The position numbers and the translations under genes are program-made. Shown one piece after another: positions 1-22,916 of a DNA stretch of 64,000 nucleotides (positions are counted from its first letter, which is position 1; each line of letters starts with the position of its first letter). Source of the stretch: Candidatus Latescibacterota bacterium (GTDB taxonomy: Bacteria; Latescibacterota; UBA2968; UBA8231). Location of the stretch: positions 3,008,001 through 3,072,000 of the forward strand of contig OZ242005.1 of NCBI GenBank assembly GCA_965204725.1, written 5' to 3'. Below the pieces are notes generated by a model that worked only from the letters and a program-made list of their open reading frames with translations, was not told the origin of the DNA and searched no databases.

Positions 1-247
1 GACCAAACAGTTCTCGGTGGATTTCAGCGCGTGTACGTCCAAGATATTCGGCAACATCGGATATAATCGCGCTCAAGGTGCCGACATGTACGTTTCGATG
101 ACGCGGGATCGTCACCCTATGTTCGGTGCCTTGATCGGCAGTAGTCAGCATCATGTGACTGCCTTTCTGTCGGATGAGCCGGTAGCCGTAGTGACGGCGT
201 AGTAACTTCGCCAAGTCATCGCCGGATAAATCGCGGGGCAATTTCAC
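1..247 (-). CDS. hicA: HicA-family mRNA interferase toxin (3' end runs off the window)
   Basis: Not in the ORF track. Manual translation from GTG at 247 gives MKLPRDLSGDDLAKLLRRHYGYRLIRQKGSHMMLTT...VTIPRH...VGTLSAII. It has the HicA GSH motif, and its GTG overlaps the TGA of the upstream gene (GTGA). Confidence 0.85.
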   Translation of the reverse strand, partial: MKLPRDLSGDDLAKLLRRHYGYRLIRQKGSHMMLTTADQGTEHRVTIPRHRNVHVGTLSAIISDVAEYLGRTRAEIHRELFG

Positions 248-456
248 AGGACCACAGCTTCTTCCTTGACGAGATGCAGCCGGATGACTTGGGGCGCACA
301 GCCCTCGTCGAAATGGCAGAGTACGGCGTCTTTCGCCATGGCCTTCAGATCGGCCCAATCCTGTCCTTGCGTAAAGATGCTATGGCCCAACGCCTTGGCG
401 TCATAGCCGCCTTCGGTCGCCTCGGTCACTTCAAAAATAATTTCGCTTGGTCTCAT
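244..456 (-). CDS. hicB: HicB-like antitoxin (short form)
   Basis: EIIFEVTEATEGGYDAKALGHSIFTQG...AKDAVLCHF matches the HicB N-terminal pattern; translationally coupled to hicA. Confidence 0.75.
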   Translation of the reverse strand: MRPSEIIFEVTEATEGGYDAKALGHSIFTQGQDWADLKAMAKDAVLCHFDEGCAPQVIRLHLVKEEAVVL

Positions 457-551
457 TATGGGACCTCCAGTTAGTGAGCCTAGATCAAGCCTGAACTCGA
501 TTTAGGGTTTAGCACGGGCGTTGTGACGCTCGGCGTAGTCGTCAAACTTGA

Positions 552-1916
552 TCACTTTGCCAAAAGCTCCCCTGCATCGCCGTCGTCGGGCAGGCGGGCC
601 GCCTCGCGCACATCCACTTGGCCGGTGACTACATCGGCGATCAGGCGTGTGCGGTATTCGCTCAACAATTCGATTTCCCGCCGGGCGCGGGCCGTAGCGG
701 CGTCGATGGCGGCGGTCTGTTTGTCCAAATACGCGGCGATGGCGGCTTGCTCGGCGAGAGGTGGGATGGGCAAAAGTGCGGATTTGATGGCATGATGAGA
801 CAAGCCATAGCGAGTTACCCCGTTGGCCGCTAGGTGAAACTGAGAAGCAATCGCCGAACTCTGTAAAGAATGAAAAAGATACGCACCGTTGAGCACTGCT
901 TTCAAAGGACGAAGCAAGGCTAAATGGTATCCGCAAACCAAATCTTTGGCCGAATACTCAACAAACGCTGGCACCCCAATGTCGTTCCATACTTCCGAAT
1001 CTTTGGTAATCAGAACATCGCCTAGTTCTAACCGAAAGCGATCCATTTCGTCCGCCTTAGCCGTGGCTCGCATAAACGGCACACTCTCGGTAATGCGGTC
1101 GTTTTTGTACACGTCAACATAATTGCAAAGTCGGACGGGAAGTTCATCGTCTTTGCTATGTTTATCAACGTTACTCACTCGCATATTGACCGTGTGTCGC
1201 AGCCGCCGGACTTCCCAATGCGCCGGCACCTCGCCAAGCCACTCCACGCCAGAGGGCTTGAGGGGCACATCCGGGTCAAGTCCGCGTGTGACCGCCTCGT
1301 GGACGACAGCCTGCCGATACTCCTTGAGCAACTCGATGAGCCGTTCCCTGCTGCGGAGGTAGCGGGCGATGCGCCCGTCGGTGTGGTCGAGGTAGCGGAC
1401 GATGGCGGCTTGTTCGGCGAGGGGTGGGAGAGGGACTAATTGAGAACCAAATTCTGCATACCTAAAATCTGATGACCGTTCTCGGATGCCCTTTGCAAGT
1501 GCTTGTATCCATTGATTTCGTGCCATTTCTCTCAAGGTGTAAGCATAATAGTAAGCGTTAGCTCTCGGATTAGCTCGGCAGACGGAATAAACAGGCGTCC
1601 CCTTACCATCAGAGTCAGCAACCCCAATTGCCCCGGCAAAAGCATCCATAGCGTGGATTACCAAGTCTCCCCGGCGAATGCCTTGATAGCCAATCTCCTT
1701 TATGGATTCCGTAAATCCTAGCTCACGCCGATTCTTCCTAAGCGTTACGGTGCCATCGCGAAAGCATGTAACGGTTTCATCACCCTCTCGAACGGACCTC
1801 CCCATTTTCTGAAATAACCATTTTGCACGCTCAACATGCCAATGCGCCGGCACATCGCCGAGCCACTCGACGCCGGAGGGCTTGTAGGAGGGATAGGGTT
1901 TCAGGTCGGCGGTCAT
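552..1916 (-). CDS. hsdS: Type I RM specificity subunit, copy 1
   Basis: Repeated conserved blocks (PSGVEWLG.VPAHW twice, PPLAEQAAI twice, LIADVVTGQ) flank two TRDs. Confidence 0.95.
   Translation of the reverse strand: MTADLKPYPSYKPSGVEWLGDVPAHWHVERAKWLFQKMGRSVREGDETVTCFRDGTVTLRKNRRELGFTESIKEIGYQGIRRGDLVIHAMDAFAGAIGVADSDGKGTPVYSVCRANPRANAYYYAYTLREMARNQWIQALAKGIRERSSDFRYAEFGSQLVPLPPLAEQAAIVRYLDHTDGRIARYLRSRERLIELLKEYRQAVVHEAVTRGLDPDVPLKPSGVEWLGEVPAHWEVRRLRHTVNMRVSNVDKHSKDDELPVRLCNYVDVYKNDRITESVPFMRATAKADEMDRFRLELGDVLITKDSEVWNDIGVPAFVEYSAKDLVCGYHLALLRPLKAVLNGAYLFHSLQSSAIASQFHLAANGVTRYGLSHHAIKSALLPIPPLAEQAAIAAYLDKQTAAIDAATARARREIELLSEYRTRLIADVVTGQVDVREAARLPDDGDAGELLAK
598..1435. repeat. ~840-bp direct repeat of 16133-16970 (hsdS central region, TRD2 and C-terminus)
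   Basis: Near-identical sequence at a constant offset of 15,535 bp (601 with 16136, 1411 with 16946). Confidence 0.95.
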
Positions 1917-1971
1917 TCCACTATCCCAACGTCACAACGAATGATTTATTGCCCAACGCCCACACGCCGAT

Positions 1972-3378
1972 CTAGTCCACCCAGCCCGCCGAACAATCGC
2001 CACTCCTGTTTCTTCCAAACTGATCTCGACTGTTGTCGGGTGACGTTCCATCTCTTCTTTGGAATGCCTTGTGAATCCACCGGCGAATTTGCTCCGTCGC
2101 CTGCTGGCCGGGCCAATTGTAAATGCAGGCGTAGGGATCATCGTCTCCGCAGTTATCCGCCAGCCTCGGCGGTATCAGGTGAGGATGGTACTTTCCCGTC
2201 CCAAAATCCGGGTGATTGGGCAACAGAATCCCCAACAGACCACAGCGGGGGTTCTTATCCGTTTTCCTCAAGCTGGAACCGATCTCCCAATCCACATGCT
2301 TCCGTTGCCAAGTGCAAGGGCCGATCAAAACGATAGTAACGGTTGCGTCGGCAATGAAGTCGTCGCGGATTTTCTGGCGAATCGTTTCCGTTTTGATATT
2401 GAGGTCGTCAATGTCGCCATCCTCGACTGATTTATCTACCATATCCTCGCCCATCATGCGGACGAACAGGTCCTTGTAGTCTTGATCATCGTGATGGAAA
2501 CTGACGAATACTTTGTGCCTATTTGTTTGGCTCATATCTTTCTCCTTTTGGAGTCCAAGGCGGTGTAGCCCCCGCATGACCAGTATGGTTGCTTGATCTA
2601 TGTGCGGTGTGCGGGCGAGGGTGGCGTTTTCATCCTCCGAAAGCCCATTGCTCAAGTATGTGCTGGCATCCCTCAAGCCAGTATCGGACGAGAACGCCGC
2701 GAATTTCTGGCGGCCCGGCCAATCCGGGCGGGAGCCTGCCCAAGGCTCAACCAGCCCGAGGGTCTCGGCAACGTCCCGGGTACAGCCGCCGAAGCCGCCC
2801 AACAAAAATAGCGGTTGACGTTTCTGGAGCGACAGCAGGGCTTCCTCCGCGATGCCGGGCATAATGCCTTTGTAACCGGCGACTTTCCCACCTAATACGA
2901 CTCTCGCTTGGGTCGCCTCGCGCATGACGCGCCGCATAGCGGTCAATCCAGTGGCCCATTCCTCGTCGCTTGGCTGATGCAACGCACGTTTGTGCCATGT
3001 CGTCGGTTCCAAACGGCGACCTTTCTGCGTTAGGCAGACCAAATCGCCGGTGCCAATAAGGCTGTCGGAGATCGCCTTGAGTTCGTCTGTGGCCATACTT
3101 ATGTGGACCGGCCATGCGAGGTAATTGGTCACGCCAATCTGGGTTTCACTCGTCTCGCGCCGATAGCGACTCACCAGTTCAAACAACCATTCCGTAAACC
3201 CGTCCTTCCGCAGATCGCCACCGTATGCGAGGCGAGCACCGGACGAAAGTAGATGTAGTGGGAGTCTATCCATGGCGTCGCGCAGATGCACATCGCTTAG
3301 CCCAAATACCGACAGGTCTGGGCTTTCCGATATCGAGATTGCCACCGTATTGCCAGCAATCGTTGGCATATAGGCCAT
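1972..3378 (-). CDS. SLOG (cluster-2 type) domain fused to a ThsB-like TIR (MTH538/DUF1863) domain
   Basis: The N-part ISISESPD...GARLAYGGDLR...LGG...G.MPGIAEEA...LLGGFGG is SLOG-like. The C-part HKVFVSFHH...VTIVLIGPCT...VDWEI is a ThsB-type TIR with catalytic Glu. GGAGG precedes ATG 3378, and an internal AAGGAG-N6-ATG lies at 2535. Confidence 0.8.
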   Translation of the reverse strand: MAYMPTIAGNTVAISISESPDLSVFGLSDVHLRDAMDRLPLHLLSSGARLAYGGDLRKDGFTEWLFELVSRYRRETSETQIGVTNYLAWPVHISMATDELKAISDSLIGTGDLVCLTQKGRRLEPTTWHKRALHQPSDEEWATGLTAMRRVMREATQARVVLGGKVAGYKGIMPGIAEEALLSLQKRQPLFLLGGFGGCTRDVAETLGLVEPWAGSRPDWPGRQKFAAFSSDTGLRDASTYLSNGLSEDENATLARTPHIDQATILVMRGLHRLGLQKEKDMSQTNRHKVFVSFHHDDQDYKDLFVRMMGEDMVDKSVEDGDIDDLNIKTETIRQKIRDDFIADATVTIVLIGPCTWQRKHVDWEIGSSLRKTDKNPRCGLLGILLPNHPDFGTGKYHPHLIPPRLADNCGDDDPYACIYNWPGQQATEQIRRWIHKAFQRRDGTSPDNSRDQFGRNRSGDCSAGWVD

Positions 3379-3380
3379 CG

Positions 3381-4073
3381 CTACACCTCCGTGAGCCACT
3401 GGCTCAAGTTTAGCAACCGAACATGCGGCGCGATTTTCTCAAACAACTGTTCCTCCTCAGCCCCCAATGGCGGGTCGGGATATACAATCGTGGGATCCGC
3501 TACATCCGTGTCAGTCGGCAGGGCCGGAGCAGAAATCAACTCTGGGTTCGCAAAAGAGGTGAACGCCGGATTCGCAAGAGAGATTAACTCTGGAGGTCTT
3601 GGCATGAACAAGGCCCCCGAGTTGGATCGCCCTGCGAGCTCGACGCAGCATTGCCAGAGAAAGTCTTTGAACACTTCGTCGAGCAAACGACCAATGACCA
3701 CCTCGATGCGACCTGTCTTATCCGGGTCCATCCGCACGATGGGCACATTGCCCATGTATGGAAAGCCGCGCTCGTCAATATCTGTCATACAATTGATCAC
3801 AATCATCGGAACATTCTGGATTTTCGCTTCGATGATCTCGCGCCGACACCATTCGCGTGACGAGTAGGAATCAGTATGTACAGCCACGACCACGCTTCTC
3901 TTAACTTGGTGGTAAAGGACATCCTGAAAGCGTACACCCGCGGGAATATCTATCATGTCGAAAAAACTCGACAGCCCGCTGTTCTGGTGCAACCAATCTC
4001 GAATACTCTTGGCGATGAGTTCTCCATCGCTGTCGTGTTTTGAATGACTGAGAAAAATCTGCACTTTCTCCAT
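3381..4073 (-). CDS. TIR domain protein (TIR_2-like)
   Basis: IFLSHSKHD...FFD..DIPAG...YSSREWCRREI (TIR boxes, catalytic Glu) and a C-terminal YPDPPLG.EE; GAGGTG RBS. Confidence 0.85.
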   Translation of the reverse strand: MEKVQIFLSHSKHDSDGELIAKSIRDWLHQNSGLSSFFDMIDIPAGVRFQDVLYHQVKRSVVVAVHTDSYSSREWCRREIIEAKIQNVPMIVINCMTDIDERGFPYMGNVPIVRMDPDKTGRIEVVIGRLLDEVFKDFLWQCCVELAGRSNSGALFMPRPPELISLANPAFTSFANPELISAPALPTDTDVADPTIVYPDPPLGAEEEQLFEKIAPHVRLLNLSQWLTEV

Positions 4074-4127
4074 TCAGTTCACCTCGGTTCCTCCGCTGGG
4101 CATCCACCCGTCCGCCCGTGCCCTTCC

Positions 4128-5699
4128 TTACATGCCCCAGATGTCGATCTCCGTCCCACGGTCCGATACGCGGCGATCCCGAAACACCTTGTCGTCCCAA
4201 CGCCGACCTGCGCGCCGGTCGAAAACCACCAAATGACCCGCCTCTGCATCGCAACGATCCATATACTCGGCGGTCTGCTCCAACCCCTCGGCGATAGTTT
4301 GCTCCAAGCTCTTGTGGAGCACTTTGCACTCGATCACGAACTGGCGCGTGCGCTCGCCCTGCGGCCAGACGATGAGCAGATCGGTGCGTTTCCGACCCAA
4401 GCCATACTCGCGCTCAATCCGCCCGCCGCTGTTGACGAGCCGTTGCAAAAACGCCTGCAACAGCAACTGCGGACCGGCCTCTTGATACTGGAATCGCTTG
4501 ACCCAATGCTCGGAGTGTTCGCGGAAGAACGTCTGGAACGCGGTCAGCAACTTGACCACATCCAAGTTGCCGTCGGCATGGATGTACCAAGCCGTGTCCT
4601 GATCAAATTCCCCTTGAATGACCCATGTCAGTTCGCGGGGGATGACCTCGGCATAAATCGAATTGGCAATGCGATACGGCAGGTCCTGCGCCACGAGGCC
4701 GAGATCGCGCACGTATTCCAAATCGCGATCGGTGAAGTGGCGTTCCTCGGCCCCGCTCAACAGCGGCTCCACGATGCGCCGCACGCGCTCCTCTTGGAGC
4801 TTATCCGCCAATTGGTCGAGGTGCGTTTCGCGGCGGAGGATGAGCCGCTCTTTCGCCTCGACGATGGCCGCCGCCGTGATTGGATCGCGCCGGTCTGCGG
4901 CCCCATCGCGGAAGCAGGTTTGATCTGCCAAGGCGTTGACCAGCCACGGCTGCCCTTGGGTCTGCGTCCAGATCGTCGCCAGTGCGTCTGGCGTGAACAC
5001 CTGACCCGTTTCATCGGTGTGTTGTGCGAGCAGGGCCTGCACCTCGTCTTGCGAGAAGTCGCCCAAGCGCAACGATTGTGTCTTGATGTTGAACGCGCTC
5101 CCCCCGGCGATAGTCGCGTTGGCCGCAGTGGAATGGATACGGTAATCGCGCACATCGCGCACACCGCACAGCACCACGCTTTGCGGAAACCCCTCTGGGC
5201 GCAGATCGTAGCCCGCTCGTAACTGCCGCAACACGGACAGGAGTGCGTCGCCGATCAGCGCGTCGATCTCGTCGATGAGCAGCACCAGCGGTTTCGGGGA
5301 CGCCGCGGCCCAACGGGTCAACGCCTCGCGCAAAGCAACGTGCGGACCGTACTTGGTCAAGATGTCGAGCCAAATCTCGTCTAGAAATTCGTCGCCTATT
5401 AAACGCGCCCGAGATGCCAACTCGCCCAGAATGGTGCGCGTCACTTGTTCCACATCTTCGCGTGCGGCTTGCCCACCCTCGACATTGACGTACACGCAAC
5501 GATAGACGCCCTCGGCGTTGAGCAGGTCGCGCAGAGCCAGCAAGGCCGAAGTCTTGCCCGTCTGCCGAGGTGCGTGTAGGACGAAATACTTCTCGTCCCG
5601 AATGAGGGCGAGTACATCGTCGAGGTCTAAGCGTTCCAGCGGCGGGATGCAATAGTGCCTTGCCGGCTTGATGGGGCCGGCGGTGGTGAAAAAGCGCAT
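4128..5699 (-). CDS. AAA/STAND-like P-loop ATPase with C-terminal PD-(D/E)xK nuclease, copy 2
   Basis: Walker A APRQTGKT, Walker B LLIDEID, C-terminal REY..GR.RTDLLI...VIECK. Confidence 0.85.
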   Translation of the reverse strand: MRFFTTAGPIKPARHYCIPPLERLDLDDVLALIRDEKYFVLHAPRQTGKTSALLALRDLLNAEGVYRCVYVNVEGGQAAREDVEQVTRTILGELASRARLIGDEFLDEIWLDILTKYGPHVALREALTRWAAASPKPLVLLIDEIDALIGDALLSVLRQLRAGYDLRPEGFPQSVVLCGVRDVRDYRIHSTAANATIAGGSAFNIKTQSLRLGDFSQDEVQALLAQHTDETGQVFTPDALATIWTQTQGQPWLVNALADQTCFRDGAADRRDPITAAAIVEAKERLILRRETHLDQLADKLQEERVRRIVEPLLSGAEERHFTDRDLEYVRDLGLVAQDLPYRIANSIYAEVIPRELTWVIQGEFDQDTAWYIHADGNLDVVKLLTAFQTFFREHSEHWVKRFQYQEAGPQLLLQAFLQRLVNSGGRIEREYGLGRKRTDLLIVWPQGERTRQFVIECKVLHKSLEQTIAEGLEQTAEYMDRCDAEAGHLVVFDRRAGRRWDDKVFRDRRVSDRGTEIDIWGM

Positions 5700-5772
5700 G
5701 GTTTAAGTCTCCCGTTCAATGGTCTGTTCCGATCAGCCGCCCGTCTGCCCATACCCCCGTGCGTACCCTTCT

Positions 5773-7347
5773 TCACATCCCCCAGATGTCGATCTCTGTC
5801 CCACGGTCCGACACGCGGCGATCCCGAAACACCTTGTCGTCCCAACGCCGGCCTGCGCGCCGGTCGAAAATCACCAGATGACCCGCCTCTGCATCGCAAC
5901 GATCCATATACTCGGCGGTCTGTGCCAACCCCTCGGCGATGGTCTGCTCCAAGCTCTTGTGGAGCACTTTGCACTCGATCACGAACTGGCGCGTGCGCTC
6001 GCCCTGCGGCCAGACGATGAGCAGATCAGTTCGCATGCGACCCAAGCCATACTCGCGCTCAATCCGCCCGCCGCTGTTGACGATCCGTTGTAAAAACGCC
6101 TGCAATAGCAACTGCGGACCGGCCTCTTGATACTGGAATCGCTTGACCCAATGCTCGGAGTGTTCGCGGAAAAAGGTCTGGAACGCGGTCAGCAATTTGA
6201 CCACATCCAAGTTGCCGTCGGTATGGATGTACCAAGCCGTGTCCTGATCAAATTCCCCTTGAATGACCCATGTCAGTTCGCGGGGGATGACCTCGGCATA
6301 AATCGAATTGGCAATGCGATACGGCAGGTCCTGCGCCACGAGGCCGAGATCGCGCACGTATTCCAAATCGCGATCGGTGAAGTGGCGTTCCTCGGCCCCG
6401 CTCAACAGCGGTTCGACGATGCGCCGTACGCGCTCCTCTTGGAGCTTGTCCGCCAACTGGTCGAGGTGCGTTTCGCGGCGGAGGATGAGCTGCTCTTTCG
6501 CCTCGACGATGGCCGCCGCCGTGATTGGATCGCGCCGGTCTGCGGCCCCATCGCGGAAGCAGGTTTGGTCTGCCAAGGCATTGACCAGCCACGGCTGCCC
6601 TTGAGTCTGCGTCCAGATCGTCGCCAGTGCGTCTGGCGTGAACACCTGACCCGTTTCATCGGTGTGTTGGCCGAGCAGGGCCTGCACCTCGTCTTGCGAG
6701 AAGTCGCCCAAGCGCAACGACTGTGCCTTGATGTTGAACGCGCTCCCTCCGGCGATAGTCGCGTTGGCCGCAGTGGAATGGATGCGGTAATCGCGCACAT
6801 CGCGCACACCGCACAGCACCACGCTTTGCGGAAACCCCTCTGGGCGCAGATCGTAGCCCGCCCGCAACTGCCGCAACACGGACAGAAGCGAGTCGCCGAT
6901 CAGGGCATCGATCTCGTCGATGAGTAGCACCAGCGGTTTCGGGGACGCCGCGGCCCAGCGCGTCAATGCCGTATGCAGAGCAGCCCCAGGTCCGACCTCG
7001 GCGAGAACACCGGACCAGATCTGGTTCAAAAATTCGTCGTCCAGTGTCAAACTCGCTCGGAGTGCCAATGTCGCCAGAATAGTACGCATGACTTGCTCTA
7101 CATCTTCGCGCATAGCTTGCCCACCCTCGACATTGACGTACACGCAACGATAGACGCCCTCGGCGTTGAGCAAATCGCGCAAGGCCAGCAAGGCCGAAGT
7201 CTTGCCCGTCTGCCGGGGCGCGTGCAGGACGAAATACTTCTCGTCCCGAATGAGGGCGAGTACATCGTCGAGGTCTAAGCGTTCCAGCGGCGGGATGCAA
7301 TAGTGCCTTGCCGGCTTGATGGGGCCGGCGGTAGTGAAAAAGCGCAT
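5773..7347 (-). CDS. AAA/STAND-like P-loop ATPase with C-terminal PD-(D/E)xK nuclease, copy 1
   Basis: Same motifs as 4128-5699; near-identical except residues ~92-126. Confidence 0.85.
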   Translation of the reverse strand: MRFFTTAGPIKPARHYCIPPLERLDLDDVLALIRDEKYFVLHAPRQTGKTSALLALRDLLNAEGVYRCVYVNVEGGQAMREDVEQVMRTILATLALRASLTLDDEFLNQIWSGVLAEVGPGAALHTALTRWAAASPKPLVLLIDEIDALIGDSLLSVLRQLRAGYDLRPEGFPQSVVLCGVRDVRDYRIHSTAANATIAGGSAFNIKAQSLRLGDFSQDEVQALLGQHTDETGQVFTPDALATIWTQTQGQPWLVNALADQTCFRDGAADRRDPITAAAIVEAKEQLILRRETHLDQLADKLQEERVRRIVEPLLSGAEERHFTDRDLEYVRDLGLVAQDLPYRIANSIYAEVIPRELTWVIQGEFDQDTAWYIHTDGNLDVVKLLTAFQTFFREHSEHWVKRFQYQEAGPQLLLQAFLQRIVNSGGRIEREYGLGRMRTDLLIVWPQGERTRQFVIECKVLHKSLEQTIAEGLAQTAEYMDRCDAEAGHLVIFDRRAGRRWDDKVFRDRRVSDRGTEIDIWGM

Positions 7348-7350
7348 GGT

Positions 7351-9483: not shown

Positions 9484-9503
9484 GGGTCGTCCTTGGGTGG
9501 ATG

Positions 9504-12485: not shown

Positions 12486-12496
12486 GGACAACTCCA

Positions 12497-12573
12497 GTCA
12501 AGTACCCGTCAAGTAATATAATTGATGCAGATTGGTGAATCCTTTAATAGATCCTTTACTAAATCCTTTAATA
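12497..12573. repeat. Short direct repeats upstream of hsdR (2x GTCAAGTA; 3x 12-bp (A/G)ATCCTTTA(A/C)TA)
   Basis: gtcaagta at 12497 and 12508; aatcctttaata / gatcctttacta / aatcctttaata at 12538-12573, in an AT-rich intergenic region. Confidence 0.8.
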
Positions 12574-12684
12574 GACTCTCCGAAATGTCTAAAACTTATT
12601 AAAGAGTAAAAGTGTTGTAAAAACAGAGACTTGCGGAGATTTGGCAGACGCGAGTCAGTGTTTGCTGTCCCCTTTCCTTTAATT

Positions 12685-14403: not shown

Positions 14404-15458
14404 GGGGTATGGGGTGAGCGGAGGTCCTCTATCCAGTTCTTCTCGGCGAGCACATTGAGGGCAATGTCGAGTTGTCGGGGAGTGAACTGTCTCTTTCGCT
14501 CGTTCCACATATATGTTCGCTCGGCGACCTCGGCAAGGGTCGATGCCTGCTCTTCGCGGACGACCCAATGGACGGTGGCCAGCAATTCCAAGCCAAAGGA
14601 CGACTCGAATCCCTCGACGAGGGCGGCCACCCTTTCAAAGCGGGCGGGCGTTTGGGGCGCGTCCGCGAGAAAGGTGTGTGCATCCTCAAGCGCACCCGGT
14701 ACGAGTTCCAATTCTTTGTGGGGTGCATCGCCTCCGTCTGCGTAACCGGACACAAAGTGCCCTTCAATGGCATGCAAGACGTGCCGGAGGTTTTCGGCGT
14801 AAGGTCCGTAAGGACCTTTGGCGAATCGCAGTCTCAACGGCTCGCCAGCAGTCTGCATGAAGTACATGAGCTTGTGTACTTCCAGCAGGGTAATGAATGG
14901 ATCCAGCAGACCGCGTAGGTAGCGGTCCATTAGCCCGATAAGCGCGGCCCGTCCTGCTGTCATTTCCGGGACCTCGCGCGAACGATTGGCCCTTTGATCT
15001 ACTGGGCCGCTAGGCTCAAATACGACGACCTTCACATCGTCAAATTTCTCCAAAGCCGCCTGCACACGCCTGCGTACTTCCGGCCACTCCAAGCCGCCTA
15101 GTCCGCTGCCAAGCGGGGGGATGGCAATGGAGCGGATGCCCCGCGTTCGTATTTCCGTTGCGAGCGATACCAAGCCGGCTTCGATGTCCTCCATGCGGCT
15201 TTTGCCCCGCCAGTGCCGTTTGGTGGGAAAGTTGATGATGTAATGGGGATTGGTAAGTTGCCCGGTCTCAAAGACGAACACCTGTCCCGGCCGCATTTCG
15301 TCGCGCTTACACCGGGTGGCATAGGCTTTGAAATTTTCGGGAAAGGCTCGCTTGAACTGTAGCGCGATGCCGCGCCCCATGACCCCGACGCAGTTGACGG
15401 TGTTGACCAGAGCTTCGGCATCTTCCGCGAGGATGTCGCCGGTCTTGTATTTGATCAT
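14400..15458 (-). CDS. darG: DarG macrodomain antitoxin (DNA ADP-ribosyl glycohydrolase)
   Basis: GDIL...ALVNTVNCVGVMGRGIALQFK, INFPTKRHW, PPLGSGLGGL; C-terminal KLMYFMQ...GPY...LELLATVHW; AGGAG RBS. Confidence 0.93.
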   Translation of the reverse strand: MIKYKTGDILAEDAEALVNTVNCVGVMGRGIALQFKRAFPENFKAYATRCKRDEMRPGQVFVFETGQLTNPHYIINFPTKRHWRGKSRMEDIEAGLVSLATEIRTRGIRSIAIPPLGSGLGGLEWPEVRRRVQAALEKFDDVKVVVFEPSGPVDQRANRSREVPEMTAGRAALIGLMDRYLRGLLDPFITLLEVHKLMYFMQTAGEPLRLRFAKGPYGPYAENLRHVLHAIEGHFVSGYADGGDAPHKELELVPGALEDAHTFLADAPQTPARFERVAALVEGFESSFGLELLATVHWVVREEQASTLAEVAERTYMWNERKRQFTPRQLDIALNVLAEKNWIEDLRSPHTP

Positions 15459-15477
15459 GGTTGTTCTCCTTTTGCGG

Positions 15478-16122
15478 TCAATAATACCAATCGGGCTTGA
15501 TTTCGACGAGTGGTTTATGGGCGGCGGTCCCAAGACCCGCCATGACCTGTTGATAAACCCGTTGCGACAGGACGCCGATGCGCGAGATCAGTGCCCAAGG
15601 AAATAGTTGCTCAATTAAAAATTCTGCCTGTTTGCCTTCCTTACACTGCCGCCAGTCGGTGGCTTGCACTGCATTCCAGTTGATTTCGTCCAACTGCTTC
15701 AAGTCGCACAGGTCCTCAAAGTAAGAGGTGCCAGCATTCGAAAGCGTAAATGCCCAACGCTTACCATGTTTCTTTGCCCAAGCAACGGTTTGATACAAGT
15801 CTGCCTCCAGATGGACGATAGGGCCTTGCCCGCCGCAATAGGTCAATTCTGGGTGGTTCCTTTGGGAAATCACGTAGAGCATAATAGAGCGCGGACAGAA
15901 GTAGAATGGCACACAGTCGCCTACGCACAGGTCTGGATGACTGCTCAAAGGATTCGTGAGGCGGCGTTGCTTGATGTTGTACATGCCAATCGTGGTGCCG
16001 GGAGGTTGGCGTCTGAGTATCTCCGCGTCGCACCAGATATAGTTGTCTGCAATAATGGATTTGAGCCGGTCCACATGAACAATATGGTATATCTTTGGCT
16101 GACGGGGCACCTGCATCGTCAA
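15478..16122 (-). CDS. darT: DarT ssDNA ADP-ribosyltransferase toxin (DUF4433)
   Basis: IYHIVH, IKQRR, VPFYFCPRSIMLY and KQAEFL (catalytic Glu); directly upstream of darG. Confidence 0.93.
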   Translation of the reverse strand: MTMQVPRQPKIYHIVHVDRLKSIIADNYIWCDAEILRRQPPGTTIGMYNIKQRRLTNPLSSHPDLCVGDCVPFYFCPRSIMLYVISQRNHPELTYCGGQGPIVHLEADLYQTVAWAKKHGKRWAFTLSNAGTSYFEDLCDLKQLDEINWNAVQATDWRQCKEGKQAEFLIEQLFPWALISRIGVLSQRVYQQVMAGLGTAAHKPLVEIKPDWYY

Positions 16123-16125
16123 ATC

Positions 16126-17481
16126 TCAGTCAGCCGCCTCGCGCACATCCACTTGGCCGGTGACTACATCGGCGATCAGGCGCGTGCGGTATTCGCTCAA
16201 CAATTCGATCTCCCGCCGGGCGCGGGCCATGGCGGCGTCGATGGCGGCGGTCTGTTTGTCCAAATACGCGGCGATGGCGGCTTGCTCGGCGAGGGGTGGA
16301 ATGGGCAAAAGTGCGGATTTGATGGCATGATGAGACAAGCCATAGCGAGTTACCCCGTTGGCCGCTAGGTGAAACTGAGAAGCAATCGCCGAACTCTGTA
16401 AAGAATGAAAAAGATACGCACCGTTGAGCACAGCCCTCAAAGGACGAAGCAAGGCCAAATGGTAGCCGCAAACCAAGTCTTTAGCCGAATACTCAACGAA
16501 GGCAGGCACCCCAATGTCGTTCCATACTTCCGAATCTTTGGTAATCAGAACGTCGCCGAGTTCTAACCGAAAGCGAGCCATTTCGTCCGCCTTAGCCGTG
16601 GCTCGCATAAACGGCACACTCTCGGTAATGCGGTCGTTTTTGTACACGTCAACATAATTGCAAAGTCGGACGGGAAGTTCGTCGTCTTTGCTATGTTTAT
16701 CAACGTTACTCACTCGCATATTGACCGCGTGTCGCAGCCGCCGCACTTCCCAATGTGCGGGCACATCGCCTAGCCACTCGACGCCAGAGGGCTTGAGGGG
16801 CACATCCGGGTCAAGTCCGCGTGTGACCGCCTCGTGGATAACGGCCTGCCGATACTCTTTGAGCAACTCGATGAGCCGTTCCCTGCTGCGGAGGTAGCGG
16901 CGGATGCGTCCGTCGGTGTGGTCGAGGTAGCGGACGATGGCGGCTTGTTCGGCGAGAGGTGGGACAGGGAGTGGGTAGTTGGCCACGAATGCCTGCGGTA
17001 CGCGTTGTTGACCGGCTGCACCCGTCATCGCCTCAGCACCGGAATGTCGAAATGGTGCAAGAGTGGTCAGGCGGTACAGAAACTGTGAGGAGATAGACGA
17101 TCCCGCTCGTAAGACGTGAAATTCCGTTGAACCGAAACCGATTTCCGTAGATAAGGCGCGAAGACACGCGCCCTTGCCATTCTCAAAGCACGGGGTGATT
17201 TTGGCAACAAGAACATCGTCTCGGCGGAAATAAGTAAAGCCGTTCCAAACGTCAGAAGCAGAGACCATTTTCTCATCTATTTCCCCATCGGTCCCTACTC
17301 GCTCCATGGGAAGAAACGTCACCGGCGTATCTGCTGTAAGGAATGTACGCGCTTCGGTCCTGCTCGGGTTCAATGAGGCGACCCACTTCAACCGCCGCAC
17401 CTCCCAATGCGCCGGCACTTCGCCAAGCCACTTGACGCCGGAGGGCTTGTAGGATGGGTAGGGTTTCAGGTTCGTAGTCAC
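16126..17481 (-). CDS. hsdS: Type I RM specificity subunit, copy 2 (different TRD1, same TRD2 as copy 1)
   Basis: Same conserved blocks as copy 1; TRD1 contains AKITPCFENGK...GSTEFHVLR; C-terminal half near-identical to copy 1. Confidence 0.95.
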   Translation of the reverse strand: MTTNLKPYPSYKPSGVKWLGEVPAHWEVRRLKWVASLNPSRTEARTFLTADTPVTFLPMERVGTDGEIDEKMVSASDVWNGFTYFRRDDVLVAKITPCFENGKGACLRALSTEIGFGSTEFHVLRAGSSISSQFLYRLTTLAPFRHSGAEAMTGAAGQQRVPQAFVANYPLPVPPLAEQAAIVRYLDHTDGRIRRYLRSRERLIELLKEYRQAVIHEAVTRGLDPDVPLKPSGVEWLGDVPAHWEVRRLRHAVNMRVSNVDKHSKDDELPVRLCNYVDVYKNDRITESVPFMRATAKADEMARFRLELGDVLITKDSEVWNDIGVPAFVEYSAKDLVCGYHLALLRPLRAVLNGAYLFHSLQSSAIASQFHLAANGVTRYGLSHHAIKSALLPIPPLAEQAAIAAYLDKQTAAIDAAMARARREIELLSEYRTRLIADVVTGQVDVREAAD

Positions 17482-17696
17482 TTTACTATCCTAAGTCACA
17501 GCAATTTTCAAGGCAGGTCATACAATTTGCGTATTTATGCCAGAAAATACTGAGTTCACGACGATGAGCGGTCAATCAAGGGTATTCGACGAGGGTGATT
17601 ATAGATGCTTGTGAAGATGTACTCTCCGGGTTACAGATACTCATAATGCTTAGGCTCACAGTGATCGATTGTGACGTTCATCTGCTTCGATGCCTG

Positions 17697-18617
17697 TCAG
17701 TCAAAGGATAAATCGTCAGCTATATCTTCAACTGTCTTTCGGTGCGCTTCTGATTGCTGGAGGCGCCTTTCGCTTTCCCTACGCTTGTGTTCGAGGCTGT
17801 TGGCCTCCTCCACGTTCGCTCTATCAACACATAGCATCAGTGTCTTGCGATGATACTTCTTAACTTCTTCGATTGTAGTCCCATCTAGTACGATCTTCGC
17901 GCCGGAAACTCTGGCAATGCCTGGACGATGCATAGAGGTGAAACTTGGGGGGGAATTCCAAGTTTGCACAAAGATACCAGACCATAGGGATGAAGGTTCC
18001 CGATTAAGTCTGAAAGGTACGGTGTAAAGAGCGGAGCCCGGTGTACCATCCAGTGTCGGTTCTGTAACTTCATCAACGATGACATCAACAATTTTAATCG
18101 GTTCGTCCGACGGTGATTCCTCCATAGGCTCCGAGTAGGCGGGCCGAGACGAGGTTTGAAGTGGCGGAGCGACAGGTCTTTCCCCTAGTAGCGTAACTAT
18201 AAGATCAGGATAGTTTTTCTTGTATTGTTCCGGCGTACTCAAATCAATATAGCATTTCCCTTTCAGCCATGATGGGGCTGAATCTTTCCACTTATCACGG
18301 GCAAGAATTGGGATGAACTTACGGTGATTGCTTTGATTAAGCACTTCACTAGTCATGATATCTCCCTCATATCCAACACCACCCCGTCTTTCGTCTGACT
18401 TTATCCGATAGTTGGGCGTACAGATGATCAAAACATAATCATTTTCTCGTATCTCTTTTTCCATGAAGGCTGGGAATTGATCGCCAGGAGCAGTATGCCA
18501 CTGATCTAGAATCGTCTCGACTCCATCGGCGCGAAGTTTGGTCGCCAAGTCTGCAACCCACTTCTTGTGAGAATCACCATCCCATGAATAAGATATGAAG
18601 GCTTTTGGAGCACCCAT
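17697..18617 (-). CDS. SEFIR/TIR domain protein with an unassigned C-terminal domain
   Basis: KAFISYSWD...WVADLATKLRADGV...LDQW...VLIICTPNY...GGVGYEG...KFIPIL; visibly lower GC than the core genes. Confidence 0.85.
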   Translation of the reverse strand: MGAPKAFISYSWDGDSHKKWVADLATKLRADGVETILDQWHTAPGDQFPAFMEKEIRENDYVLIICTPNYRIKSDERRGGVGYEGDIMTSEVLNQSNHRKFIPILARDKWKDSAPSWLKGKCYIDLSTPEQYKKNYPDLIVTLLGERPVAPPLQTSSRPAYSEPMEESPSDEPIKIVDVIVDEVTEPTLDGTPGSALYTVPFRLNREPSSLWSGIFVQTWNSPPSFTSMHRPGIARVSGAKIVLDGTTIEEVKKYHRKTLMLCVDRANVEEANSLEHKRRESERRLQQSEAHRKTVEDIADDLSFD

Positions 18618-18691
18618 GAGTTGTTATTCCTTCTCTCAATGCTAATTTCAAATGAATTACTTAAATAAAAAAAGATTGCATAGCCTAAGAA

Positions 18692-20164
18692 TCAAGACCT
18701 CCGAAATATCCTATCGAAAAGCTTGACGACATAACGCCAAATCCCACGCCATATAGATTGCGGCGGCTCCGTGTATTTTTCCTCTACCAAATAGGGTGGG
18801 TTTTCCTCATCCCCCTGTGCGCGACGCTGACGGAAAGAGCAATAGGGATGGCATTCGTCATTGATAATCCGCGTCTCGGCGGTCACAAATTGGTAGTCCT
18901 GTTGCCGCACTAACGGCCACCACTCCTCGGCGAGCAGGTAGCGAAGCATCAAATTCACCTCCATCCCGGCAACGCCCACGCTGAAAGGAAATACATTTTG
19001 ATTGCCGACCCGCTCTTCAGGCGGCAAGTTGTTGACGTAAGACGGATCATCGAGTGACCCGTCCAATTCCACAACCACCATACTCGAATTGTATTGTTTG
19101 CTGCAACGCAGACACTGATGATAGGGCGTAACGAGGTGTGTGCGCCAATGCGCTGAAAACAGACTGTCTTTGCGGCGGTCTGTTTCCACTGCGATCCCGC
19201 CATCAATAACCGGAATCAAATGCGCTTGTGCGAGATAGTTTAAGACATCGCGGGCAACTGGCCGGTCAACACAACTAAAAAGAAGATCGCAATCCAACGC
19301 GGCCTTGTAAGCCTCGCTGTTGTGAACCGAAACCGGCAAAGCCGTTATTTGGATGCTTTCAGCCGTCGCATTGCGCCGCATCGCTCGGGCTGCCAAATCG
19401 ACTTTTAATTCACCGATGTCGTGTACTGTTCCGTAGAGCAAGCGGTCGAGATTGTGCTCCTCAACTTTATCGGGGTCGATCAGAGTAACTTGTGCGATTC
19501 CAATTCGAGCCATGGCCTCGGCGACGATGCACCCGACGCTGCCAAGTCCGACAATGCCGATCTTCAAACGTGAGATCGTATTCTGCGATTCGCGCCCCCA
19601 CGTATCAAAAGTGCGCCTGAGTATATCCCTCCGTAGTGGGGGCGGCGCAATGTCGTCGTTAAAATAAATTTTGTAGGACTGCGGCCCGACAACGCGGACC
19701 TTCTCGCACCAATGGCGACGCATCTCCCCGCCATCTCTCTCCCAAAAACGCGCACTCCAGCAACCGTCGGTCCCGATTGTCAGCCCTACCAACGGCAAGC
19801 CGGTCGCTCCCGCCGGATACGCTAGAACATCTCGCTCTGCTTCGACATCGGCAGCACTCATTCCCTGCCATCCATCGCTTGGATGGCTGTGCATAAACGC
19901 CAACCCCGCCCTTTTTTTCAGGGCTATTTTCATCGCCCGTGCGAGGTACGCAGGCTCGAAACTAACGTTGCCGTGCAGCAGTCGCTCGCCTTCTTGGGGT
20001 AGGATGATTTCGTCTATCAGCGCGGTGCGGCGCAGCTTGCCTGTAGAGGGGTGCCACAGAGCAAAGCACAGATCTTCTTGGGGCGTGTCGCGCTTGTAGT
20101 GTTGTAGTAAGTGATCGTTGGAAGTTGAATCCGCCTCTGCGGTGAGAACGGCCTCGACCCTCAT
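18692..20164 (-). CDS. JAB/JAMM peptidase fused to ThiF/E1-like adenylyltransferase (BubCD-like)
   Basis: N-part QED...FMHSHP...MSAAD (E...HxH-x7-S-x2-D). C-part GIVGLGSVG, DPDKVEEHNLDR, CVD, CLRC and C..YC. ATG overlaps the upstream TGA. Confidence 0.88.
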   Translation of the reverse strand: MRVEAVLTAEADSTSNDHLLQHYKRDTPQEDLCFALWHPSTGKLRRTALIDEIILPQEGERLLHGNVSFEPAYLARAMKIALKKRAGLAFMHSHPSDGWQGMSAADVEAERDVLAYPAGATGLPLVGLTIGTDGCWSARFWERDGGEMRRHWCEKVRVVGPQSYKIYFNDDIAPPPLRRDILRRTFDTWGRESQNTISRLKIGIVGLGSVGCIVAEAMARIGIAQVTLIDPDKVEEHNLDRLLYGTVHDIGELKVDLAARAMRRNATAESIQITALPVSVHNSEAYKAALDCDLLFSCVDRPVARDVLNYLAQAHLIPVIDGGIAVETDRRKDSLFSAHWRTHLVTPYHQCLRCSKQYNSSMVVVELDGSLDDPSYVNNLPPEERVGNQNVFPFSVGVAGMEVNLMLRYLLAEEWWPLVRQQDYQFVTAETRIINDECHPYCSFRQRRAQGDEENPPYLVEEKYTEPPQSIWRGIWRYVVKLFDRIFRRS

Positions 20165-20532
20165 ACGTCCTTCCAAATTCGCCGCAAGTGTTCGTTTATG
20201 TAGGCATACATGTGATTTGTCGGTAACTGATCCCATATATCCCCCGGGGGTCTGCTCATTGCGAGCCATTCGCGCCCATTGGCGTTGTATCTTTCAACCA
20301 CGCCGCCTCTCCCGTCGTCAATTGGCGGGGTTATATGGATCCAGTGGGGAGGGTAGTCAGGATACCCAGTCTCTTGAAAGCTGACGCCTACCGCGACTTG
20401 CTCGCCTTTGTGAGAGCCGGTTTCAATCGTGTAGTCAAACGAAACTACTTTTCCGCGTGGGCTATCAGACCACGATGTTTCATACCCCAAGGCTTCCAAC
20501 TCAGCCTTTATCCGATTGATGTCGTCGGACAT
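20161..20532 (-). CDS. Prokaryotic E2/UBC-like protein (E2 family E, BubB-like), no cysteine
   Basis: GYPDYPPHWIH and W.AMSR..W motifs; lies between Ubl and JAB-E1; no Cys in 123 aa. Confidence 0.75.
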   Translation of the reverse strand: MSDDINRIKAELEALGYETSWSDSPRGKVVSFDYTIETGSHKGEQVAVGVSFQETGYPDYPPHWIHITPPIDDGRGGVVERYNANGREWLAMSRPPGDIWDQLPTNHMYAYINEHLRRIWKDV

Positions 20533-20542
20533 TCTTCTTTGC

Positions 20543-20779
20543 CTATGCTACTGGCGTGGGCTTATTGGGAATCGTAATGAATAGGTTATCCTCCTCCAGA
20601 TCGACCCAGTCACCCCAGCCATACTGCCCTTTGGCACCCTGCAGAAGGTAATCCTTCAGCCTACCGGGGATGGCTCCATTCTTTTCAGCGAGCTCCAGAA
20701 TATCGTGGGCGACGACTCCTATATACGACGTGGTCATTTCAATGCCGTTTACTTTGAGCGTGAATTCTTTTTCAGCCAT
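20543..20779 (-). CDS. Ubiquitin-like beta-grasp protein (multiubiquitin/BubA-like, single domain)
   Basis: 78 aa FTLKVNG...AHDILELA...DYLL...DWVDL...FITIP plus tail NKPTPVA; AGGAGG RBS; first gene of the E2/E1 operon. Confidence 0.72.
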   Translation of the reverse strand: MAEKEFTLKVNGIEMTTSYIGVVAHDILELAEKNGAIPGRLKDYLLQGAKGQYGWGDWVDLEEDNLFITIPNKPTPVA

Positions 20780-20828
20780 TTTGGGCCTCCTGACGTTAGT
20801 TATCTCAGACAGTAACACTCAGTACTGT

Positions 20829-20858
20829 ACTGTAACAGATACTATACTAGAGTGTCAA
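20829..20858 (-). promoter_or_regulatory. Putative sigma70 promoter for the Ubl-E2-JAB/E1 operon
   Basis: Minus strand TTGACA (20858-20853), 18-nt spacer ending TGT, then TACAGT (20834-20829). Confidence 0.55.
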
Positions 20859-20867
20859 GCTCGCCGA

Positions 20868-21112
20868 TCATTCGCCATCGGCCCCGATGATCTCCGCGAG
20901 CACCGCTTCATTTTCGCGCTCCAACATTAGGGTGTCGGCGCGGATTCCGCTTCGGGAGCGCAGCGGTTGCGGCTTGTAAAAATGCCGGGATGTCTCTCGA
21001 CCGGGTAGGGGCTGAGGTTGATCTCTGGCGACAGGAATTTCTCAATGAGCGCGCCGAGCACATCGGCGTCGGACAAGCGCGGAATCTAGTTGCGAAACTC
21101 GAAGTTCTTCAA
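20868..21112 (-). pseudogene. hsdM: Internally deleted hsdM relic
   Basis: 20874-20989 matches hsdM 7384-7499 and 20984-21112 matches hsdM 8998-9126, joined at a shared GCCGGG; CAG to TAG stop at 21086-21088. Confidence 0.92.
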
Positions 21113-21206
21113 TTGGTTAAATCCTTTACTAACTTCTGTTATAGAGCAGGCGCGATTGGCAAAGAATAGTCTCCAAAACGGCTTGCTGTTCGGCGTTGGG
21201 TTTCTG

Positions 21207-22429: not shown

Positions 22430-22916
22430 TTTGGAATTTCTCCCGCAGGCGTTGCTCGATACAAGGGGGCACGAACTGGTTCAACTGCCCGCCCATTTGC
22501 GCCACTTGGCGCACGACCGACGAACTGAGATACATGTACTCGGCCTTGGTCATTAGAAAGACCGTGTCGAACTCTGGCCACAGCGAGCGATTGGTCAAGG
22601 CCATGGCGAACTCGTGCTCAAAGTCGGTGACCGCCCGCAGGCCCCGCACGGCCGTGCGTATGTTGTGCTGCCGCGCATAGTCAACGGTTAAGCCGTCGTG
22701 AAAATCGACGTTGGCTTGCGGCCAGTGGCTAATGGCCTCGGAGATCATCGCCCGGCTCTCCGCCAGCGAAAAGAGCGGCTTTTTGTTGGGATTGATCGCC
22801 ACCAGCAGGGTGACTTGGGAGAAGATGCCCAAGGCCCGTTCTAGAATGTTTAGGTGGCCCAAGGTGATGGGGTCGAAACTGCCGGGATAGATGGCTGCGT
22901 CTGCAAAGCGGTTCAT
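22422..22916 (-). CDS. coaD: Phosphopantetheine adenylyltransferase
   Basis: AIYPGSFDPITLGH, RGLRAVTDFEHE, LSSSVVR. Confidence 0.97.
   Translation of the reverse strand: MNRFADAAIYPGSFDPITLGHLNILERALGIFSQVTLLVAINPNKKPLFSLAESRAMISEAISHWPQANVDFHDGLTVDYARQHNIRTAVRGLRAVTDFEHEFAMALTNRSLWPEFDTVFLMTKAEYMYLSSSVVRQVAQMGGQLNQFVPPCIEQRLREKFQNA

Follow-up and report, generated by a model that had tools for sequence, protein, structure and literature searches.

A composite type I restriction–modification island with cargo genes at its hsd junctions in a Candidatus Latescibacterota genome

The first 21.3 kb of a 64,000-nt stretch of Candidatus Latescibacterota bacterium DNA (contig OZ242005.1 of assembly GCA_965204725.1, positions 3,008,001–3,072,000; this whole stretch is the window, and all coordinates are relative to it) hold a composite type I restriction–modification (R-M) island, made up of one complete enzyme and the stump of a second, related unit. 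Additional genes fill the junction between hsdM and hsdS (M-S) and the one between hsdS and hsdR (S-R). Taken as a whole, the region is probably a composite type I defence island whose hsd junctions are cargo bays, the cargo being exchanged by way of the hsd sequences that flank them. All genes within 1–21.3 kb lie on the minus strand. Read from the dprA side, their order is a spacer-like remnant, an hsdM pseudogene, Ubl (a ubiquitin-like protein), E2-like, JAB-E1, bSEFIR, hsdS2, darT, darG and an AlbA_2/HATPase_c_4 gene, followed by a 193-nt spacer, hsdR, 20 nt, hsdM, two AAA genes, TIR, SLOG-TIR, hsdS1, a hicB-like gene and hicA. Family calls for these genes come from Pfam and PADLOC. Unit B denotes hsdR-hsdM-cargo B-hsdS1-hicBA, and unit A denotes hsdM relic-cargo A-hsdS2-darTG-AlbA; each has four genes between hsdM and hsdS, and three more lie between hsdS2 and hsdR, all in the same orientation. 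The initial annotation described a tandem duplicate of a type I locus. A blastn self-comparison of the window recovered every repeat on which that description drew, and two related units are indeed present, but the second is a stump and not a complete locus. The intact hsdR-hsdM-hsdS1 system spans 12491–552, with Pfam and PADLOC matches for all three subunits. The hsd genes and the slots between them are:

9504–12491, minus strand: hsdR (HSDR_N, SWI2_SNF2, ResIII)
7351–9483, minus strand: hsdM, intact, 710 aa (PADLOC MTase_I PDLC03029, 3.4e-246; HsdM_N, N6_Mtase)
552–1916, minus strand: hsdS1, specificity subunit of the intact system (PADLOC Specificity_I, 6.9e-109; Pfam Methylase_S)
16126–17481, minus strand: hsdS2, intact alternative specificity gene (PADLOC)
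20865–21112, minus strand: hsdM pseudogene, 248 bp (HsdM residues 120–163 joined to 662–700, with an in-frame stop)
1937–7373, minus strand: cargo B, the M-S slot of unit B (two AAA genes, TIR_2, SLOG-ThsB_TIR), with homology to unit A ending at both edges
17501–20864, minus strand: cargo A, the M-S slot of unit A (Ubl, E2-like, JAB-E1, bSEFIR)
12685–16122, minus strand: cargo of the post-hsdS2 (S-R) slot (DarT, DarG, AlbA_2/HATPase_c_4)

Comparison with relatives supports the view that both the M-S and the post-hsdS junctions are cargo bays of high turnover in this HsdM family. An HsdM search confined to one genome per species gave 80 loci, at 65–84% HsdM identity, from many bacterial phyla and from archaea; hsdS and hsdR were placed in them by tblastn, and open reading frames (ORFs) of at least 80 aa were collected from the gaps by a simple greedy rule, 105 from M-S gaps and 98 from S-R gaps. 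The usual gene order is M-S-R, with hsdR downstream on the same strand in 61 of the 80 loci. Among the 72 loci with a measurable M-S gap, 53 are occupied (at least 184 bp), 36 of them by more than 1 kb and the largest by 5.4 kb, and in the remaining 19 the two genes are adjacent, at most 38 bp apart and mostly overlapping by 4 nt. The S-R gap could be measured in 61 loci; it is at least 192 bp in 50 and at most 104 bp in 11, with a maximum of 6.7 kb. Tabulating the genes between hsdM and hsdS thus found neither constant adjacency nor invariant cargo. With 53 of 72 gaps occupied, contents that differ and at least 32 changes of cargo on an HsdM tree, the earlier proposal that this junction is a variable defence slot holds.

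The gaps are filled mostly by known or candidate defence genes. By Pfam, the M-S gaps contain GmrSD in 12 loci, DUF1016/YhcG in four, SIR2 with HerA in three and ThsB or TIR in four; L001, the closest of the surveyed relatives, has three ThsB genes there. HicA is found in three M-S gaps by Pfam and in four more by tblastn, Fic in two, and single cases include RhuM, a KAP NTPase, ApeA, Kiwa, ImmA with DUF4411, AlbA_2/HATPase_c_4 and a type II R-M pair; some transposases are also among these ORFs. At a threshold of 1e-10, PADLOC matched 47 of the 105 M-S gap ORFs, two of which are hsd fragments, and 32 of the 53 occupied loci contain at least one non-hsd match. The S-R gaps hold AlbA_2/HATPase_c_4 genes (L004, L008, L012, L013 and L020), DarT and/or DarG (L038, L045, L047 and L064, and by tblastn also L049 and L061), ImmA-like peptidases (four loci), AAA_21 with DUF4276, PIN, DUF433, RhuM, HEPN, BrnT, HigB, methyltransferases and a transposase. 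Certain modules (hicBA, AlbA_2, RhuM and ImmA) occur in either slot. Many gap ORFs have no family match.

The pace of this turnover can be gauged from a quick maximum-likelihood HsdM tree of 70 rows (69 loci and the window, with 11 loci left out whose hsdM frame is truncated, interrupted or of unusual length), 64 of which we labelled, using eight cargo classes. The M-S cargo class changes at least 32 times on this tree, against a minimum possible of 7 and a mean of 39.3 after shuffling, so cargo is weakly tied to the HsdM lineage. Two well-supported sister pairs, L025/L033 and L044/L059, carry different cargo. The window itself groups with L001 (support 100), and both have ThsB-type TIR genes in otherwise different sets.

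The window's own two units part company at the same junction. Their similarity breaks off at ...IIGADG of HsdM; it picks up again some 20 nt ahead of each hsdS start. The initial annotation had placed the break and the short leader just so, but IIGADG is merely the natural end of hsdM, as HsdM of relatives ends in ...EIIG plus 0–6 variable residues. In an overlapping frame the leader reads ...VGIVE-stop, which resembles the ...GAVE-stop of L029; we dropped the idea that it is a remnant of an ancestral hsdM 3′ end, 20 nt being too short to claim this. Upstream of the break, unit A keeps only the relic, whose two pieces align with the intact gene at 91% (7374–7499 versus 20865–20989) and 93% (8998–9126 versus 20984–21112), and which contains nothing of HsdM beyond residues 120–163 and 662–700. 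The internal deletion of 1.5 kb joins two copies of CCCGGC, a 6-bp microhomology, and the hsdM of unit A would have been destroyed by two such short-homology deletions. The window contains no second hsdR fragment, the gene at 9504–12491 being the only copy.

Beside the relic lies a short sequence that recalls the region in front of hsdR:

12492–12684, minus strand: hsdR upstream spacer, 193 nt, with three 12-nt repeats at 12538–12575 and the direct repeat TACTTGAC at 12497–12515
21113–21146, minus strand: remnant resembling the hsdR upstream spacer, 34 nt, including the 12-mer common to both

As first reported, the 12-mer occurs at 12551 and 21121 and, with exactly two copies, nowhere else in the 64 kb, where 0.05 are expected and one of 100 shuffles reached two. 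Its pattern, ATCCTTTAMTAR, is absent from the loci of all 80 relatives, so it is no family-wide marker. The similarity extends beyond the 12-mer, with 23 of 28 nt in the remnant matching 12548–12575. Tandem repeats of the TAGYAAAGGA type are found in the window (12538–12575), in L008 (16318–16345) and in L012 (15743–15765) and, the relic remnant apart, were seen only upstream of hsdR, which suggests that an hsdR once stood in front of unit A. All three of these loci have an AlbA_2/HATPase_c_4 gene as the upstream neighbor of the repeats. This hints that the protein in question, or a partner of it, binds repeats of this type. A second element, the direct repeat TACTTGAYGGGTACTTGAY (window 12497–12515, minus strand), ends 5 nt before the hsdR start and has an in-frame TGA inside; allowing up to four mismatches, eight of 62 relatives, spread over several phyla, have it in front of hsdR (L004, L005, L008, L013, L019, L020, L037 and L050), and none of 78 control regions taken from upstream of hsdM does. 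An operator is one conceivable role, a 5′ leader another.

In contrast to its hsdM, the hsdS gene of unit A is intact despite the loss of its partner. The two copies are direct repeats, 95.7% identical over 838 nt (598–1435 versus 16133–16970) with a longest common exact run of 131 nt, and their start regions match at 86% over 98 nt (1839–1936 versus 17404–17500). The first target recognition domain (TRD1) of hsdS2 is unrelated to that of hsdS1, and the remaining protein is about 98% identical. Over 278 codons of the common part there are 26 synonymous and 8 non-synonymous differences, which indicates that both copies stayed under selection, hsdS2 in spite of its own dead hsdM. The pairing of HsdS with HsdM is a textbook case, and because hsdS2 shares every HsdM-contacting region with hsdS1, HsdS2 most likely works with the surviving HsdM and HsdR, adding a second recognition sequence with one half-site in common. 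Two specificity genes with a 96% identical half might instead call to mind a phase-variable type I system in which recombination between the hsdS copies switches specificity. We give this next to no weight: the copies are direct and not inverted repeats, the 15.5 kb that separate them hold hsdR and hsdM, such that recombination would delete the enzyme, and no recombinase family match was found among the island ORFs. A shufflon in particular we rejected on account of the direct orientation and the lack of a recombinase gene in the island.

How might cargo be exchanged? Incoming related DNA would most likely recombine through the conserved hsd segments that flank a bay, namely the hsdM 3′ end, the 5′, central and 3′ conserved regions of hsdS, and the 5′ region of hsdR, and incomplete events would leave behind tandem units and hsd fragments. 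Support for this is indirect. TRD1 has been replaced within an otherwise nearly identical HsdS. The divergence between units A and B is uneven, at 4.3% in the 838-nt 3′ part of hsdS, 8% in the relic and 14% in the 98-nt 5′ part of hsdS (Fisher p = 3e-4 for the extremes). Similarly, the 5′ segment of hsdS is 93% identical to that of L001, compared with 78% for hsdM. Stray hsd fragments of the kind expected from incomplete flank-mediated exchange are present in 5 of the 80 relatives. In L055 (12591–14486), three extra hsdM 3′-end fragments are stacked inside the M-S gap. In L061 (702–1428), an internally deleted hsdM relic is separated from the intact gene downstream of it by 8.5 kb that include PIN genes and transposases. 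L039 contains an hsdS 5′ fragment in the gap, L003 several pieces of hsdS, and L057 an hsdS 3′ fragment after hsdR. A swap of cargo by homologous recombination through the hsd flanks, as the initial annotation envisaged, is thus plausible and has candidate scars in five relatives; the mechanism itself we infer.

Alternatively, cargo might be placed by mobile-element machinery, that is, by insertion sequences or site-specific recombinases. Transposase genes or fragments do occur in the gaps of L001 (Y1), L033 (DDE), L041 (Mutator) and L061 (ISL3/Mutator), and the direct-repeat element at the hsdR edge of the S-R slot is conserved in the window and in the eight relatives named above. Yet, as was noted at the outset, no integrase is visible in the window's island: Pfam found no integrase or transposase family among the 16 ORFs of 1–21 kb. 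Neither the 12-mer nor the TACTTGAC element borders cargo on both sides. Moreover, many cargo genes of the relatives have a 4-nt overlap with the stop of hsdM or the start of hsdS, quite unlike the insertion of an element. Mobile elements as the general agent are therefore unlikely.

Several points weigh against exchange through hsd flanks, or limit it. The cargo is not fully scrambled: none of 200 shuffles of the tree labels gave as few changes as observed, so part of it is inherited together with hsdM. The class labels are our own assignments and the class 'other' is heterogeneous, which makes the number of changes a lower bound. Two of the 19 adjacent loci may in fact be occupied, since the hsdM frames of L011 (239–4021) and L014 (10001–12948) continue for 1.8 and 0.8 kb beyond the homologous part to hsdS; these extensions are possibly cargo domains fused to HsdM. 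No recombination event as such came to light in the loci compared, nor, with one genome per species at 65–84% HsdM identity, was there a donor–recipient pair with identical flanks and different cargo. Gene contexts were compared within that identity range, and the nearest HsdM relatives, P0001 at 99% and P0002–P0004 at 90%, fall outside it. Insertion sequences contribute in places, with transposase genes in or near the gaps of the four relatives listed above. Finally, a scan of 1–20 kb for sigma-70 promoters and terminators found 7 and 22 sites, no richer than the 8.0 and 20.7 of shuffled sequence and hence uninformative; tight spacing and common orientation suggest that the cargo genes may be expressed together with the hsd genes.

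The origin of the two units admits two descriptions, both of which fit, and we remain undecided between them. They share a formal ambiguity: the earlier parse into R-M-S units departs from the family order M-S-R (61 of 80), but within a tandem array the two orders are equivalent and differ only in where the array is cut. One description is integration of a second, related unit from another lineage, as a circular or linear fragment, through a single Campbell-type crossover in hsdS or by homology at one end, after which the redundant hsdM decayed. The 838-nt direct hsdS repeats enclose precisely one complete R, M and cargo set (DarTG-AlbA-hsdR-hsdM-cargo B), and the S-DarTG-AlbA-spacer-R arrangement is canonical. 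The 20-nt hsdR–hsdM junction has no counterpart, hsdR lying directly upstream of hsdM on the same strand in none of the 80 relatives, and would arise from a circularised M-S-R unit. Furthermore, units that are 4–14% diverged and different in both slots are more easily explained by two lineages than by one duplication. On the other hand, the remnant next to the relic looks like the spacer in front of hsdR, as if an hsdR had stood earlier upstream of the unit A hsdM; there are no parental alleles by which to place the crossover; and the window begins at position 1, with nothing visible to its left. Integration is a serious candidate, if somewhat short of likely.

The other description is in situ tandem duplication of one R-M-S unit, followed by replacement of the cargo in both slots and of TRD1, and by deletion of hsdR and most of hsdM from one copy. 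It accounts for the 12-mer and the 28-nt similarity at the start of both units, for a remnant of a repeat type otherwise found only upstream of hsdR, and for homology breakpoints that are the same in both units. It requires, though, no fewer than three subsequent replacements (slot 1, slot 2 and TRD1) as well as two deletions, and it has to accommodate a divergence of 4–14% that is uneven, and unit ends that differ (AlbA in one, hicBA in the other). In situ duplication is possible but rather doubtful.

A contig that joins two strains, each with one unit, would make the tandem arrangement an assembly artefact. The window does look like metagenome-type sequence, and it contains an 838-nt repeat at 95.7% identity with exact runs up to 131 nt. 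However, no internal repeat is crossed on the way from the relic to hsdR and hsdM (by way of cargo A, hsdS2, DarTG, AlbA and the spacer), so the co-residence of stump and intact enzyme is independent of any repeat-mediated misjoin, and another strain could have contributed no more than the sequence that follows hsdM. An intact hsdS2 under purifying selection beside a dead hsdM makes sense only with an hsdM in the same cell, and a comparable arrangement of relic and intact gene exists in L061. An artefact is thus quite unlikely.

The S-R cargo of the window consists of the following genes, with those that follow hsdS1 given last:

15478–16122, minus strand: DarT (PF14487, 1.7e-62; PADLOC DarT, 7.9e-68)
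14400–15533, minus strand: DarG, macrodomain protein (PADLOC, 1e-136)
about 12685–14367, minus strand: AlbA_2/HATPase_c_4 protein (SLFN_AlbA_2, HATPase_c_4)
244–456, minus strand: hicB-like ORF, 70 aa, putative antitoxin from a conserved gene pair (no Pfam match at E ≤ 5)
2–247, minus strand: hicA toxin gene, open at the window edge (PF07927 HicA_toxin, 1.2e-10)

The DarT ADP-ribosyltransferase directly adjoins the macrodomain protein DarG, as expected of a DarTG pair. The GTG start of hicA overlaps the stop of the hicB-like ORF, which is 74% identical to L028:12020–12262, an ORF that precedes a HicA homologue in the M-S gap of L028. Of the hicBA pair originally proposed, HicA is matched by PF07927, and hicB, lacking a family match, is a candidate suggested by the conserved gene pair. 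A hicBA-type module hence sits in the M-S gap in L028 and after hsdS1 in the window. A toxin–antitoxin pair had been seen after each hsdS, and DarTG and hicBA are where they were said to be; they are, however, cargo of the S-R slot rather than ends of units. Given that DarTG is found in the S-R gaps of at least six relatives and AlbA_2/HATPase_c_4 in those of at least five, DarTG, AlbA and hicBA are best taken as second-slot cargo. The AlbA-spacer-hsdR block of the window is conserved in L008, whose AlbA homologue is 73% identical and is followed, as in the window, by TAGYAAAGGA-type repeats and TACTTGAYGGGTACTTGAY just before hsdR. By such comparisons, hsdS2-darT-darG-AlbA-spacer-hsdR is the normal S-cargo-R arrangement of the HsdM family.

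Cargo A, judged from folds and homologues, is a Bub-like set to which a bSEFIR gene is appended:

20543–20779, minus strand: Ubl, 78 aa (fold and relatives; no Pfam match)
20161–20532, minus strand: E2-like protein without cysteine, 123 aa (fold and relatives; no Pfam match)
18692–20269, minus strand: JAB-E1, 525 aa (match to BubCD in the PDB, 6.3e-22)
17697–18617, minus strand: bSEFIR (PADLOC, 2.7e-69)

The JAB-E1 protein matches Citrobacter BubCD (PDB 9ea4) over residues 86–364, with the HSHP metalloprotease motif aligned. The Ubl has 68 relatives among cluster representatives, a family with an invariant ...PTPVA C-terminus in which Ala is the last residue in 26 of 35 aligned homologues; 15 of the 35 match Pfam Multi_ubiq. 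A few members have short extensions or two tandem domains. The structural model of the Ubl (predicted local-distance difference test, pLDDT, 88) is nearest to BubA and bacterial multi-ubiquitin proteins and then to ubiquitin, at probabilities of about 1.0 and template-modelling (TM) scores of 0.55–0.68, but none of these matches reaches E 1e-3. The E2-like protein belongs to a conserved family (238 matches); an alignment of 27 sequences has no conserved Cys, and S93 is invariant within A(M/L)SRPPG. Its model (pLDDT 81) gives weak matches, BubB first by probability (0.90, TM 0.45, E 0.047) and then E2 and ubiquitin E2 variant (UEV) domains. A protein atlas offers Prok-E2_E (0.93) and Multi_ubiq (0.85), as leads only. 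Pfam at E ≤ 5 returned nothing for the E2-like, Ubl or hicB-like ORFs, and a sequence search of the PDB returned nothing for the E2-like protein and a best E of 0.54 for the Ubl. The content first described for this slot is accordingly matched directly for JAB-E1 and bSEFIR, and from fold and relatives for the Ubl and E2. A literature search found no paper under the name bSEFIR. The G+C content at 17000–21000 is 47–55%, compared with 60–62% for hsdR and hsdM and 62–64% for the chromosome beyond 21 kb, which suggests that cargo A arrived later, from a donor of lower G+C.

The likeness to Type I Bub operons (bioRxiv 10.1101/2024.11.21.623953) lies in the JAB-E1 fusion, related to Citrobacter BubCD, and further in the beta-grasp Ubl closest to BubA and multi-ubiquitin proteins and in an E2-like protein that lacks a cysteine and has an invariant serine, although its fold match to BubB is weak. 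Unlike in those operons, the Ubl and E2 of cargo A are separate ORFs and not a BubAB fusion, and the Ubl family ends in Ala. The Bub preprint places a DUF6527 gene (BubE, a serine protease) in all Bub operons; none of the four cargo A ORFs, between which the gaps are below 220 nt, matches it, and a bSEFIR gene comes instead. Phage defence by Bub operons was, according to that preprint, not yet demonstrated.

Cargo B comprises four genes:

5773–7347, minus strand: AAA_22/AAA_35 protein 1 (Pfam)
4128–5699, minus strand: AAA_22/AAA_35 protein 2 (Pfam)
3381–4073, minus strand: TIR_2 protein (Pfam/PADLOC)
1972–3399, minus strand: SLOG (LD_cluster2, 3.8e-74) fused to ThsB_TIR (Pfam/PADLOC)

The tandem ATPase genes align at 93% (4117–5721 versus 5762–7369) and their products are 94% identical, with most differences packed into residues 79–125, possibly a diversifying recognition segment. 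This gene set is the one originally annotated, except that the nuclease part of the two ATPases amounts to a sub-threshold PDDEXK_9 match (E 0.005–0.01) to a PD-(D/E)XK fold. No PADLOC or NCBIfam model matches either ATPase, and NCBIfam gave no match above cut-off for the ten island proteins searched. Thoeris systems pair a SLOG sensor-effector, ThsA, with a TIR protein, ThsB. Cargo B resembles them in having a ThsB-type TIR and a SLOG domain in adjacent genes, but its SLOG is of the cluster 2 type and fused to TIR, not to SIR2 or Macro, and no SIR2 or Macro protein that could be a ThsA effector is present in cargo B. A match to ThcB4 of Thoeris type III in NCBIfam is far below cut-off (46 versus 220 bits).

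The embedding of defence genes in type I R-M loci is already published, as the initial annotation recognized, and the window is a well-resolved new example rather than a new kind. Payne et al. [quoted passage not shown] The correspondence lies in extra same-strand genes between system genes, many of them known defences including GmrSD-like ones, in cargo of the window and its relatives that is matched by PDC-M50, PDC-S02 and further candidate families of that study, and in cargo that varies among related systems (53 of 72 M-S and 50 of 61 S-R gaps occupied). The window departs from this with four genes in each M-S gap, with two slots that are both occupied, and with a paralogous stump unit alongside. 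The RptR-RMS-DarTG2 island of enteropathogenic Escherichia coli (EPEC) has DarTG between hsdS and hsdR of an M-S-R system, just as in the window; its S-R site is called a potential recombination hotspot for defence systems, and direct repeats in its promoter are the operator (Nucleic Acids Research 2025, PMC12255303). By contrast, no RptR gene was identified in the window, whose repeats are unlike the TAGCTA site and which goes further in having an AlbA_2 gene, cargo in the M-S slot and a second unit. PrrC in the EcoprrI type IC locus (PMC12707154) and TgvAB in the type I operon of VPI-2 in Vibrio cholerae (PMC11411939) are likewise an accessory defence gene or pair inside a type I operon that forms a second layer. 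The cargo of the window is unrelated to PrrC or TgvAB, and nothing in the window indicates that it guards the R-M enzyme, as PrrC does. A limited literature search found no description of a tandem pair of intact and relic units with different cargo, though we make no claim that none has been published.

Beyond the island, the neighbouring "competence operon" of the initial annotation reduces to DprA and a ComEA-like HHH_3 protein, split by coaD and two ORFs without a family match. An ORF at 22916–24259 contains 30-nt periodic repeats that encode a Ser/Pro/Gln-rich segment and has no Pfam match, and an ORF of 2162 aa at 25398–31886 adjoins the ComEA-like gene.

Together, these comparisons point to hsd junctions that would act as bays for same-orientation, tightly packed and largely anti-phage modules. 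In the window they would comprise a TIR/SLOG set resembling Thoeris together with two ATPase-nucleases, a SEFIR NADase-type protein alongside a Bub-like, ubiquitin-type conjugation set, and further DarTG, hicBA and an AlbA/Schlafen-like protein; that they are largely anti-phage is suggested by the family matches to ThsB, PDC-M50B, bSEFIR, DarT and DarG. The cargo probably rides on hsd promoters and would add abortive-infection layers behind restriction. In a bolder version, rather unlikely on present evidence, the type I loci of this HsdM family would constitute an integrase-free cassette platform, with the window as an intermediate caught in the act. If this were true, recombination would have universal handles in the conserved hsdM 3′ end, the short, highly conserved hsdS 5′ segment and the hsdR-proximal element; whole units, looped out through the direct repeats of hsdS, could enter other genomes again via one crossover; and tandem arrays would thereby be built and defence cassettes carried across phyla and into archaea. 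Closer to hand, the window offers a clean natural comparison within one genome, between related units whose junctions are identical and whose cargo is unrelated, and flags a Bub-like conjugation set paired with a SEFIR protein. It also points to testable handles for the exchange of cargo, and the family-wide count marks both hsd junctions as high-turnover cargo bays, such that the hsd junctions of this HsdM family are a place to look for new defence genes.

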